In this document: in pieces, positions 8,693 to 52,920 of the stretch
Layout of the letters: each line of letters begins with the position of its first letter
Numbering within the stretch: position 1 is the first letter of the stretch
The notes under the pieces: generated by a model
What the model was told of the DNA's origin: nothing
The model's database searches: none
The model's input: only the letters and a program-made list of their open reading frames with translations
IMG/VR virus record: IMGVR_UViG_3300020045_003390
Location: 1 to 64,000 of that record
Length of the DNA: 64,000 bases
Reading direction: 5' to 3' (one strand)
DNA from: a virus
Lineage: Duplodnaviria > Caudoviricetes
Position numbers and translations under genes: made by a program

Positions 8693-8768
8693 GCCGATTT
8701 AGCTCAGTTGGTAGAGCAACCGCCTTGTAAGCGGTAGGTAGTGAGTTCAAATCTTACAGTCGGCACCA
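8693..8768 (+). tRNA. tRNA-Thr(UGU)
   Basis: cloverleaf GCCGATT...AGTCGGC-A-CCA, anticodon loop CTTGTAA, TTCAA T-loop. Confidence 0.95.
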
Positions 8769-18067: not shown

Positions 18068-18090
18068 GTAACTGGGTTCTAATGAACCCT

Positions 18091-18134
18091 TTCTTACTGC
18101 AGAATCTTGTAACAACAGGGTTCTGTGTTAAGAA
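18091..18134 (+). terminator. long hairpin after MCP (attenuator or stability element)
   Basis: TTCTTA/TAAGAA and CAGAATCTTG/CAGGGTTCTG arms; no U tract. Confidence 0.4.
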
Positions 18135-18160
18135 AATATAACCAAACAAAGGAGCCTACG

Positions 18161-18937: not shown

Positions 18938-19429
18938 ATGATTTCTGTTGACGTATCAAAGGTACTAGAAGAATTAAAAGCATACCATCAGGATACTGTC
19001 CGCAGACTCGAAAATATGGTGAAGGGTTTCTCTTACATCATATCCAAGACTGCTATTGAGAACACTCCACTTGGTGATGCGGAAACATACTTCAAGTTGT
19101 ACGAACTAAGGCAAGGTAGAACTGGACTTGAACCAACAGAAGGCTTTGCAAGAGGTTCTTGGCAAGTTAATACTTCTGGTCAGTTCAGTATGCAAGCCTT
19201 CTACGGTGCTAACTCCGGTAGTGAAGCCCTTTCGTTAGTACAGTCTGATCTTGGTAGTTACAAACTTGGTGATACTGTCTTTGTTGGTAACAAAGGTTTC
19301 TACATCAAACAACTTGAAAACAATTACAGTTCTCAGACGAACAATCTTGGTATCATGCAACCCACATTGGACAGCATCATGCAAACATACCAAGTTGATC
19401 TTGTCAGATTATTTAATGAAACCTCTTAA
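18938..19429 (+). CDS. neck/tail completion protein (HK97 gp10-like)
   Basis: TP...G.ARGSWQV, N...YI..LE motifs. Confidence 0.65.
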   Translation: MISVDVSKVLEELKAYHQDTVRRLENMVKGFSYIISKTAIENTPLGDAETYFKLYELRQGRTGLEPTEGFARGSWQVNTSGQFSMQAFYGANSGSEALSLVQSDLGSYKLGDTVFVGNKGFYIKQLENNYSSQTNNLGIMQPTLDSIMQTYQVDLVRLFNETS

Positions 19430-19448
19430 CAAAAATTAACTTTTAAAC

Positions 19449-19538
19449 ATTGGATAGGCTGATCCCCGAAAAGACGATTCATCACCGTCCTGCCAATTGT
19501 TCTTTGTGATGCATTTTCTTGATGAGGAAATAATAAAA
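19449..19538 (+). promoter_or_regulatory. structured RNA leader of HNH gene (copy A)
   Basis: closing stem, GAAAAG, stem-loop with loop complementary to two downstream sites, CCTGC. Confidence 0.6.
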
Positions 19539-20351
19539 ATGAAAAATGATTATTACGTGTATCTGCATAAGACTTTGGATGGTAAGGTGTTTTATGTGGG
19601 TAAAGGGAGAAATAAGAGGGCTTGGCAGAAGTTTAATAGAGGTAGAGGGTGGACTGAAGTTTCTTCCAATGGATATTCTATTGAGATGTACGCTGGAAAC
19701 TTATTTGAAAAAGATGCATTAGCTATTGAGCGCGGGTTAATTGAAACCCTCCCCAATCTGGTAAATATAAGAGCACTTAGTAGTGTAGAGTTTGATGATT
19801 ATTCAGAATATTTTGAATATGATTCAAACTCTCCTAGTGGGTTGACGCGAATCAAAGGTGTATTCACCGGAAGGTATGAACAAGGTAAACTTGGGCATTG
19901 TGGTTTAAAGGTAAAGCGTTCATGTGGTGGGCAACACTGGATGATCAAATTTAAAAACAGAAATACACAAATACATAGGATCATATGGCAACTAGTTAAT
20001 GGGAAAATCCCTGAAGGTTACGTTGTCGATCATATTAATGGTGATTCTCTGAATAATAATATCTTAAATCTCAGGGTAGTGGAAAAAGTTAAAAACAGTC
20101 GAAACACAAGGAAACGTAAAAATAACACTAGTGGTGTAGTAGGGGTTACTTTAATTGTAAACATTAAAAGGAATTCTGCCATGTGGCAGGCATTCTTTAA
20201 GGACTTAAGTGGTAAACAAACTAGTAAATGTTTCTCAATTGCTAAACTTGGTTACGATGAAGCTTTCCGCTTAGCCTGTGAATGGCGTGTAGAACAAATC
20301 AGACTTCTAAACGAACAAGGCGCGGGTTACACATCACGCCACGGAATATAA
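19539..20351 (+). CDS. homing endonuclease, GIY-YIG-like N-terminus plus HNH and AP2-like domains
   Basis: YYVYLH...FYVGKG; HRIIW...VDHINGDSLNNNILNLR; NNTSGVVGV; start 19539 follows SD GAGG. Confidence 0.88.
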   Translation: MKNDYYVYLHKTLDGKVFYVGKGRNKRAWQKFNRGRGWTEVSSNGYSIEMYAGNLFEKDALAIERGLIETLPNLVNIRALSSVEFDDYSEYFEYDSNSPSGLTRIKGVFTGRYEQGKLGHCGLKVKRSCGGQHWMIKFKNRNTQIHRIIWQLVNGKIPEGYVVDHINGDSLNNNILNLRVVEKVKNSRNTRKRKNNTSGVVGVTLIVNIKRNSAMWQAFFKDLSGKQTSKCFSIAKLGYDEAFRLACEWRVEQIRLLNEQGAGYTSRHGI

Positions 20352-20365
20352 TAAGAAGGGTAAGA

Positions 20366-20773
20366 ATGAGTATTATTATAGCCCAGACAGCAGTACGAAG
20401 AAGACTTGCCGCTCTTACCCCTTCCTTACCAACAGCGTTTGAGGGTATACCTTTTACAGCGCCTACAGGGATGTATCAAAGATTGCAGTTCGTGATTAGT
20501 CCTCCGACTGATCCTACTTTTGGTACTTATTTCTACAGAGAGAATATTCAAGTTCAGATATTCGTAGCTGACAAACTTGACGTTGGAACCGCTGGAGCAA
20601 TTGTTAGGGCACAACTAATCAGAGATTGGTTTCACAAGGGTTTGACGTTAGAAGAAAGCGGAGTTCGTATGCATGTACTGAGAACTCCTCAAATCGCTGG
20701 TGCAACGGTTACTAGTGATAGGATTATTGTTCCTGTACTTATCCCTCTTACTGTGGAAGTGTACAACCAATAA
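20366..20773 (+). CDS. tail terminator protein
   Basis: synteny before tail tube; AFEGIPFTAP, VPVLIP. Confidence 0.65.
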   Translation: MSIIIAQTAVRRRLAALTPSLPTAFEGIPFTAPTGMYQRLQFVISPPTDPTFGTYFYRENIQVQIFVADKLDVGTAGAIVRAQLIRDWFHKGLTLEESGVRMHVLRTPQIAGATVTSDRIIVPVLIPLTVEVYNQ

Positions 20774-23131: not shown

Positions 23132-23431
23132 TTATTGCTGTGTCATACAACGAAGAAGTGACAGCTTGCGTAAGAGGTCATCAGACAAATCTTTTCGGTT
23201 GTAGGTCCAGTACAGGCGTTCTACAAAATCAGCCTTTGCTTCTGGCGTGTTGTCAGATTTCTCAATGACACCAATCAGGTGCTGAAGGACACTTGGGTGT
23301 TTCTGCAGAAGCTGCTTTGCGACTACATCTGTTTCTGCTTTGCGATAGCAAAGTTCTTCACCCCCAATTGCAAAAGTTGCTGTTGAGGTGATCAGTGTAA
23401 GTGCAAGCGCAACGGTCTTAATAAAGTTCAT
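23132..23431 (-). CDS. exported protein with signal peptide (moron)
   Basis: MNFIKTVALALTLITSTATFA signal-like N-terminus; SD AAGGAG; own promoter. Confidence 0.7.
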   Translation of the reverse strand: MNFIKTVALALTLITSTATFAIGGEELCYRKAETDVVAKQLLQKHPSVLQHLIGVIEKSDNTPEAKADFVERLYWTYNRKDLSDDLLRKLSLLRCMTQQ

Positions 23432-23507: not shown

Positions 23508-23603
23508 TAAGAGAGCTACACAGGAGTAATTACCTTGTGGAAAAGCGTTAACCCTAGCCTGCTCGTCTTATTTTTCTTTAGGGTTGTTAAGTAAGGGTTT
23601 GAT
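23508..23603 (+). promoter_or_regulatory. structured RNA leader of HNH gene (copy B)
   Basis: same layout as copy A: closing stem, hairpin, GAAAAG, loop complementary to two downstream sites, CCTGC. Confidence 0.6.
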
Positions 23604-24431
23604 ATGAATAATAAATACTATGTGTATGTGCACAAGATTGCAGATACTGGTGAAGTGTTCTATGTTGGTAGCGGAACTGGGAACCGGTGGCGCACCAGCA
23701 GCAATCGATCTGAATTATGGCACGAATCTAGCGCAAATGGCTTCGCACCGGAAAAAGTTTGGTGCGACTTGACGGTAAACGCAGCAAGAGAAGTTGAAGA
23801 ACTGCTGATTGAACTTATTGGTATAGACAATCTAGTTAACAAACACCTCCCAATGAAAACTATTGTGCTAGACAATTCAGTATTGAAGCAGTTTATTTAC
23901 TCTGAAGATAGTCCTAGTGGTCTAGTTTGGGCAGTTGATCAACACAGGGGCATAAATATACACAGTATTGGTGACGTTGCTGGGGGAAAAGAGTCTAGGA
24001 ATAATCAACCTCACAGGTGGAGGGTGAAGCCATCAGGTACAAATCAATCTGTAGCTATTCACCGGATTGTATGGGCACTCCATTCCCCTATTTCAGAGGA
24101 TAAGGTGATTGACCACATTGATGGTAATCCTTGGAATAATAGAATTGAAAACTTACGAGAAGTTGATAGAGCAACGAACTCTCGAAATACAAAGAAGCAT
24201 ACCAGTAATCGTTCAGGTGTCGCTGGTGTGCATTTTAAAAGAAATAGGGATGGGCATACTTATTGGTCTGCTACGTGGAGGGACGTTGACCAAAAGTCAC
24301 GTAGCAAGAGTTATATGATAGAGAAATATGGAAATGATGAAGCCTTCAAACTAGCTTGTGATTTTCGTAAGAATAAAATAGAAGAATTAAAAGCAAGAGG
24401 ATTTGGGTACACAGATCGACACATTGCTTAA
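23604..24431 (+). CDS. homing endonuclease, GIY-YIG-like N-terminus plus HNH and AP2-like domains
   Basis: YYVYVH...FYVGSG; HRIVW...IDHIDGNPWNNRIENLR; paralogue of 19539. Confidence 0.88.
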   Translation: MNNKYYVYVHKIADTGEVFYVGSGTGNRWRTSSNRSELWHESSANGFAPEKVWCDLTVNAAREVEELLIELIGIDNLVNKHLPMKTIVLDNSVLKQFIYSEDSPSGLVWAVDQHRGINIHSIGDVAGGKESRNNQPHRWRVKPSGTNQSVAIHRIVWALHSPISEDKVIDHIDGNPWNNRIENLREVDRATNSRNTKKHTSNRSGVAGVHFKRNRDGHTYWSATWRDVDQKSRSKSYMIEKYGNDEAFKLACDFRKNKIEELKARGFGYTDRHIA

Positions 24432-52845: not shown

Positions 52846-52920
52846 TGGTGCAACAGAGTTGATTCGAACAACTGACCAAGAAATTATGAGTTTCCAGCTC
52901 TTCCACTGAGCTACTGTTGC
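52846..52920 (-). tRNA. tRNA with CAU anticodon (elongator Met or Ile2)
   Basis: GCAACAG/CTGTTGC-A-CCA, loop CTCATAA, TTCGAAT; paired position 1-72, so not initiator-like. Confidence 0.9.

Follow-up and report, generated by a model that had tools for sequence, protein, structure and literature searches.

The catalogued RNA closest to the element described here is the int-alpA motif (Rfam RF02996), the source of which we take to be the comparative-genomics survey of Weinberg et al. 2017. The main text of that survey (PMC5737381) does not name the motif, and in the searchable literature neither a function nor a loop/box pairing was found for int-alpA, the name occurring only as a list entry or in connection with gene order. 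The model describes a three-way junction of the helices P1, P2 and P3, joined by the segments UA, GAAAA(G) and C(C)UG and followed by a U-rich tail and then an AGG-type box; in E. coli, the copies are immediately preceded by a tyrosine integrase gene. A second group consists of the CI RNA of phage P4 and the c4 RNAs of phages P1 and P7 (RF01695; target family RF03163, c4-a1b1), which are closed RNAs embedded in the leader of the operon they control, with one constant hairpin and one hairpin bearing an antisense loop, loop and target varying between relatives. CI acts via transcription termination; c4 masks the ribosome site of icd and is excised by RNase P. Synthesis of Ant is blocked by c4 (PMC8546580). 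A third precedent comes from the T4 family, in which RNA structures in the leaders of the homing endonuclease genes I-TevI, I-TevII, I-TevIII, segB and mobE hide the Shine-Dalgarno (SD) sequence, such that the ribosome-binding site is sequestered on read-through transcripts and expression is kept down (PMC2988022). This T4 hairpin work was the only literature found on leader RNAs of homing endonucleases or antirepressors.

The window analyzed here, a stretch of 64,000 nucleotides, comprises bases 1-64000 of a 79,311-bp IMG/VR virus record from an uncultured freshwater-type phage, the structural genes of which have distant kin in Limnohabitans phage DC31 and Curvibacter phage P26059A. No match to the locus was returned by megablast against 50,697 phage records, and distant blastn retrieved only capsid-region relatives, e.g., Limnohabitans phage DC31. 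Two homing endonuclease genes are encoded on the plus strand, both in cassettes inserted within the head-tail operon. Nuclease A (270 amino acids; 19539-20351) matched HNH_3 (1.9e-17) and AP2 (5e-7) in Pfam and family 99, HNH endonuclease, in PHROG; nuclease B (275 amino acids; 23604-24431) is likewise HNH_3 plus AP2 by Pfam and PHROG, and is 40% identical to nuclease A. It is to be noted that the N-termini of the two (19539-19640 and 23604-23700; YYVY..G.VFYVGKG) look GIY-YIG-like, with Pfam E-values of 0.006-0.11 that fall short of the cut-off.

Each of these genes is preceded by a structured leader, designated copy A and copy B. In copy A, the P1 helix, matched by both the Rfam model and our own model R1 (below), joins 19447-19454 to 19492-19499 on the plus strand, with a paired core of ATTGG (19449-19453) and CCAAT (19493-19497). 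The adjoining segment (19455-19472) contains the junction UA, the short hairpin P2 of sequence GGCUGAUCCCC (19457-19467) and the junction GAAAA (19468-19472; GAAAAG at 19468-19473), and is invariant in the A-type subfamily, aligning to UAG / P2 / GAAAA of RF02996. The P3 hairpin (19473-19489; GACG-AUUCAUCAC-CGUC) carries the variable loop (19477-19485; as DNA ATTCATCAC, closed by GACG/CGTC), which is complementary to both downstream boxes; CCTG follows at 19489-19492, the junction CU and the 3' arm of P1 (GCCAAUUG) occupy 19490-19499, and a U-rich linker leads from there to box 1. Box 1 (GTGATG; 19506-19511), 28-33 nt 5' of the start codon, complements CATCAC of the loop (-7.4 kcal/mol), and box 2 (TGATGA; 19520-19525) complements TCATCA of the same loop (-6.9 kcal/mol) and overlaps the SD sequence GAGGA (19523-19527; together 19520-19527) of the ATG at 19539. 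The counterparts of box 2 covary in related leaders, being GGAGAA in L006 and TGGAGA in L035. Every copy A element listed in an initial annotation of this locus was indeed present and could be read directly from the sequence, although the closing stem stood only in part: its ATTGG/CCAAT pairs hold, whereas the inner TAGG/CCTG pairs cannot form in copy B and are unused by the family model, in which UA and CU are junction bases and GG opens the second hairpin, P2 (GG...CC). An in-frame ATG inside box 1 (19509-19511) is probably not used, since it lacks an SD sequence and is not conserved in homologues.

A recurrence of this loop and box layout with different sequences had also been noticed in the initial annotation, and it is seen in copy B, the leader of which spans 23509-23606, as well as in dozens of relatives. 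The three-way junction of copy B (23509-23569, plus strand) is made up of P1 (23509-23516 with 23561-23569), P2 (23519-23539), GAAAA (23540-23544; GAAAAG at 23540-23545) and P3 (23545-23558), with the loop GTTAACCCTA (GUUAACCCUA) at 23547-23556. Box 1 (TAGGGTT; 23579-23585) is a perfect 7-nt complement of AACCCTA in the loop (-10.6 kcal/mol), and box 2 (AAGGGTT; 23593-23599) is itself the SD sequence, 6 nt 5' of the ATG at 23604, its AGGGTT complementing AACCCT (-8.4 kcal/mol). The helices differ in length between the copies, copy A having 2 bp in P2 and 4 bp in P3, and copy B 6 bp and 2 bp, respectively; in L010, a relative of copy B, a G.U pair of P2 is changed to A-U.

Both copies matched RF02996 over the whole model in a search of the genome, copy A with 26.2 bits (E 9e-5) and copy B with 22.8 bits (E 7e-4), scores that lie below the gathering cut-off of 35.8 bits. 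Related leaders scored above it (L006, 36.6; L034, 37.4; L082, 39.1; L077, 39.9 bits), and that of L006 is orthologous, located 5' of a homologous nuclease 38% identical to nuclease A. Since the window copies score under the cut-off while related leaders pass it, they are best described as divergent relatives on its low side. The junction bases UA, GAAAA(G) and C(C)UG occupy the model positions in both copies and are invariant in our alignment (A1), and the P1/P2/P3 architecture and the U-rich tail with its AGG-type box are likewise those of int-alpA. The copies depart from the canonical motif in P2, which has shrunk to GGCUGAUCCCC in copy A and grown longer in copy B, and in their context: in contrast to the setting of the motif next to integrase and alpA-type genes, they lie 5' of HNH-AP2 genes, each in a homing-endonuclease cassette of a phage head-tail operon. 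The element does not constitute a new system; it belongs, as a divergent member in a new setting, to an RNA family that is known but unexplained. The initial annotation had proposed an undescribed system, which does not stand, together with the suspicion that a catalogued motif might match, which proved correct. The C4 model (RF01695), on which P4 CI scored 74.9 bits as a positive control, gave no match at E <= 10 on either copy and none at its gathering cut-off on 18 related loci, and no riboswitch family of Rfam matched either copy at E <= 10. The same search returned zero matches at E <= 10 on either copy to guide RNAs of the HEARO or IscB omega-RNA type, another identity that had been considered. 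The variable loop matches the gene's own leader, whereas a guide segment would be directed at DNA elsewhere, and the partner proteins are ordinary homing endonucleases of the HNH/AP2, GIY-YIG and Vsr types, besides non-nucleases. A hammerhead-like reading of CUGAU...GAAA was ruled out by the absence of stem II.

Relatives of the leader were collected in two ways. Protein-based searches revealed the same leader 5' of nuclease homologues in L003-L006 and L010, and its absence from more distant nuclease relatives. A scan of viral contigs for TGATCCCCGAAAAG yielded at least 120 stretches, with at least 59 true copies preceded by TAGG; since the scan pattern selects one P2 subtype, the conservation of the P2 sequence in this set is an artefact of collection. 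P2 is indeed nearly invariant in the A-type set; it differs in other copies of the same contigs and in the E. coli copies, where it is a 4-bp helix. A covariance model, R1, was built from 12 A-type leaders and used to align 46 copies; it misses copy B, because P2 differs there, and is a model of the subfamily only. In the 46 copies, 91% of the cells were paired, as against 62% after shuffling, and changes on both sides were found at 12 of the 14 pairs (all 8 in P1, and 3 of the 4 in P3), with a covariation score that was reached in none of 500 shuffles and was lost when the partners were slid by 1-3 columns. Single-sequence folding of the window copies did no better than shuffles (z of -0.5 and -0.8 for the junctions, +0.9 for the full leaders); support for the predicted fold is of a comparative, not a thermodynamic, nature. 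G.U pairs are present in the stems and in the box duplexes, and the element therefore works as RNA of the plus strand. Several phage contigs contain two or three copies with differing P2, namely L100 (8597-8650, 10948-11004 and 12295-12349), L061 (2165-2217 and 7242-7294) and L038 (1597-1650 and 4157-4211). Two of the L100 copies have almost identical loops and boxes, and thus the copies within one genome are not always distinct. As a separate observation, the P2 segment AGGCUGAUCC of the A type (19456-19465) is complementary, with one bulge, to the 3' end of 16S rRNA (GGAUCACCU); this is probably a coincidence, since other P2 variants of the family lack it.

The relation between loop and tail was then quantified by parsing P1 and P3 in every copy and computing the loop-tail duplex energies. 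In nearly every member, two sites are complementary to the P3 loop. Box 1 starts 3-11 nt after P1, at -21 to -32 from the start codon, and box 2 lies on the SD sequence (-8 to -20) or on the AUG itself (0); the spacing between the boxes is mostly 11-15 nt, and their energies are mostly less than 2 kcal/mol apart. For 26 distinct loops, the mean energy of the best site was -10.4 kcal/mol in the loop's own tail and -6.1 kcal/mol in foreign tails, and that of the second site was -7.0 and -3.5 kcal/mol, respectively (permutation p <= 5e-5 for each site), which bears out the earlier notion of a 'programmable' loop that co-varies with two downstream boxes. By arithmetic, only about 0.002 occurrences are expected by chance of two perfect matches of at least 6 nt within 45 nt of a 9-11 nt loop. 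Since common descent alone cannot create complementarity, the match of loop and tail represents real covariation. A compensatory example is provided by the window loop TTCATCAC with GTGATG and TGATGA, compared with the L006 loop TTCTCCAC with GTGGAG and GGAGAA. The E. coli int-alpA copies follow the same two-box design, pairing the loop ACCTTA with TAAGGT and the loop GCCTTA with TAAGGC, with a second box on the SD sequence of the next ORF, and the loop/two-box pairing is therefore a general property of the family. The second box was weak or missing in L004, L081 and L077. In a set of Acinetobacter-type prophage contigs (L031, L052, L083, L086 and L087), the leaders are recombinant, junction and loop being intact and the tail replaced, with no matching box; in other contigs at that locus the same P1 and P2 are kept, and loop, boxes and gene (Rha, P22_AR_N or AntA) are swapped together.

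The genes downstream of the leader are diverse. Among 20 distinct proteins scanned, the nucleases were of the types HNH_3 with or without AP2, classical HNH, DUF559/NUMOD3, T5orf172/MUG113 (GIY-YIG type) and zf-His_Me_endon, and the partner homing endonucleases include Vsr-type proteins, such that at least four unrelated nuclease families are found 3' of the leader. The remaining genes are DNA-binding accessory genes, of the types Rha, P22_AR_N (P22 Ant), AntA and KilA-N+P63C, and a few others; in Acinetobacter phage TRS1, a Rha cassette with the leader occupies the same kind of place, inside the tail-gene block and directly after a terminator. Because the downstream genes are unrelated, the RNA is a portable leader and not the partner of one nuclease, and the view of it as a partner or guide specific to the nuclease is not supported.

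That the leader travels with its gene, as had been suspected, is evident from empty sites in related phages. Cassette A (approximately 19417-20351, plus strand) comprises a short left flank, the leader RNA, the boxes and the HNH-AP2 gene, and is flanked by a Neck1-like gene (18938-19429) and the tail terminator gene (20367-20773), which abut in L003, L004, L005 and DC31. Homology to these empty sites ends after ...AGATTATTTAA (19416) and restarts at TAAGAAGGG (20352). Conversely, the same four genomes contain a homologous RNA-plus-nuclease cassette flanked by the major capsid gene on one side and the homologue of the 18125 ORF on the other, a site that is empty in the window, the filled and empty sites being reciprocal. 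In the window, 30 nt separate the left edge of the insert from P1, and in L005 no more than 11 nt do so; with the edge so close upstream of P1, the leader belongs to the mobile unit, and the promoter need not. These filled and empty sites show that RNA and nuclease gene move as one cassette. Scans for promoters and terminators found nothing upstream of copy A, with no sigma-70 consensus, and near copy B the sole strong promoter was on the minus strand.

Taking these results together, we favor the reading, at a probability of roughly two in three, that the leader acts in cis, its loop pairing with the tail to cover the ribosome site and thereby throttle nuclease synthesis from late read-through transcripts. 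Each copy is the 5' leader of a free-standing homing-endonuclease cassette, in which a three-way junction, closed by P1 and with the conserved junction bases UA / GAAAA / CU, presents a P2 hairpin of variable sequence and a P3 hairpin of variable loop. Two boxes of nearly the same sequence follow within 40 nt, and the P3 loop can pair with one or the other. With the loop on box 2, the SD sequence (the AUG in some relatives) would be covered and the 30S subunit kept off, and the plentiful late transcripts running across the cassette would yield little nuclease; with the loop on box 1, the ribosome site would be free. Because one loop matches the ribosome-binding site, the leader most likely limits the amount of nuclease, and because the two pairings are nearly equal in strength, it may set, or be able to switch, the fraction of translatable mRNA. 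Since the leader is part of the mobile cassette, the nuclease gene would bring its own throttle to any operon that it invades, and the co-mobility suggests how selfish genes can settle harmlessly in highly expressed essential operons, each carrying its own translational governor. The fold, the covariation of the loop with both boxes, the placement of box 2 on the ribosome site, the family membership and the co-mobility are observed; translational repression by the pairing, a mainly cis mode of action and the role of box 1 are inferred. A plain lock model is incomplete, because a repressor needs box 2 only, yet box 1 is equally conserved and equally strong. Box 1 may serve to park the loop and so set or switch the fraction that is ON, or it may be a further binding site for RNA that acts in trans; given that it equals box 2 in strength and is transcribed first, ON could be the default state. 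The thermodynamic weakness of the window copies counts against the cis reading, as do the weak or missing second box of a few relatives and the great variety of loops. The proposed control is similar to that of the T4-family genes in that structure in the leader hides the SD sequence of a homing endonuclease. The T4-family structures, however, are simple, local and gene-specific hairpins relieved by a late promoter inside the structure (PMC2988022), whereas the window RNAs have a conserved, portable three-way junction, loop-to-tail pairing and a second, duplicate site. For an orphan Rfam motif such as int-alpA, the covarying loop and its two boxes supply a concrete and testable mechanism, and a module this small, with its specificity residing in 6-8 nt, may serve as a compact, programmable regulator of translation.

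Antisense action in trans, of the c4/CI type, is a reading that we consider unlikely but weigh in full. Either processing or termination in the U-rich stretch that follows P1 would free the junction from the leader, and the junction would then accumulate and bind both boxes on other transcripts of the same cassette, bracketing or covering the ribosome site; the resulting repression would be dose-dependent or immunity-like, and is compatible with the cis model. Rfam indeed classes int-alpA as 'Gene; sRNA', and among 29 distinct relatives 16 have a -10-like hexamer placed for a start at P1, several of them with a TTGACA -35 box as well, and in 13 U accounts for at least 7 of the 11 nt that follow P1; by the same count, the U tract is absent from more than half of the members, and an efficient terminator in the head-tail operon would starve the essential tail genes downstream. 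The analogy to P1 c4 and P4 CI drawn in the initial annotation is apt in its logic, the P4 CI RNA also being a closed RNA with a constant hairpin and a variable loop that matches boxes on its own transcript. When examined directly, the P4 CI loop (UAUCCUGUGAAG) was found to have exactly two such boxes, TTCACAGG upstream and TTCACAGGA downstream. For the window RNAs, the match of one loop to two targets on the same transcript would point to a C4-like way of working, and not to membership of C4. Unlike the window RNAs, P4 CI has a 17-bp closing stem and no GAAAA junction, and its targets flank the RNA at 35-145 nt, whereas both targets of the window RNAs lie within 45 nt downstream. The P1 c4 RNA represses Ant synthesis in trans (PMC8546580), and members of the present family are found 5' of Rha, P22 Ant, AntA and KilA-N genes. 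The two conserved boxes with their highly diverse loops also fit a selected specificity, and a role for specificity in trans would more readily account for the great variety of loops, but the two L100 copies share nearly the same loop and boxes. The duplexes, moreover, are only 5-8 bp long (-7 to -11 kcal/mol), which is weak for trans action unless a chaperone helps. Within the 79-kb genome, loops A and B had no further targets beyond chance: with overlapping words and the motif's own antisense strand set aside, the 8-mer counts were near chance and none was tied to a gene start.

A broader proposal, speculative and decidedly unlikely, is that the int-alpA junction is a portable two-state controller of selfish phage cassettes (homing endonucleases, Rha/Ant/KilA-N), and more than a passive throttle, in which free RNA or a junction-bound factor shifts the loop off the decoy box and onto the box at the ribosome site. 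If this were true, cassette expression would be sensed and limited in trans, also between co-infecting phages with the same loop, amounting to a c4-like 'immunity' for mobile nuclease genes. We regard as highly unlikely a sensor switch, in which a small molecule, or else a protein of the host or the phage, is bound by the junction (UA / GAAAA / CU and the closing pairs) and the P3 loop is thereby shifted between box 1 (ON) and box 2 (OFF). Such a switch would account for box 1, which is otherwise unexplained, for junction bases that are invariant while all helices vary, and for the balanced energies of the two alternative pairings, which resemble those of an expression platform; the conserved core is very small, however, no riboswitch family of Rfam shows similarity at E <= 10, the regulated genes have no common metabolic theme pointing to a ligand, and the lack of relationship among the encoded proteins speaks against autoregulation by the gene product. 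Finally, a role at the level of DNA, as a recognition, recombination or homing site of the nuclease or as plain repeats without RNA function, is hardly credible, for although the element travels with the nuclease gene and its boxes are short repeats, its helices are kept via G.U pairs, which are A.C mismatches on the other strand, the same leader serves unrelated nuclease families and non-nuclease genes, box 2 stands in a fixed relation to the start codon, and a structured-RNA covariance model is matched.

A few further features of the window deserve mention. Two tRNA genes were found, at 8693-8765 on the plus strand (71.2 bits) and at 52849-52920 on the minus strand (64.7 bits). A 99-amino acid ORF on the minus strand (23132-23431), located between tail genes and adjoining cassette B, is without a Pfam or PHROG family and is moron-like; it is preceded by a near-consensus promoter at 23493-23465 (TTGACA-17-TATGAT). 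On the 3' side of the capsid gene, 18068-18135 contains a terminator-like hairpin (GGGTTC..GAACCC TTTCTT) followed by a second hairpin, and this sequence is common to the window and L005 up to the position of the L005 cassette. Because of this shared sequence, the GTG at 18125 probably does not mark where that ORF truly begins.
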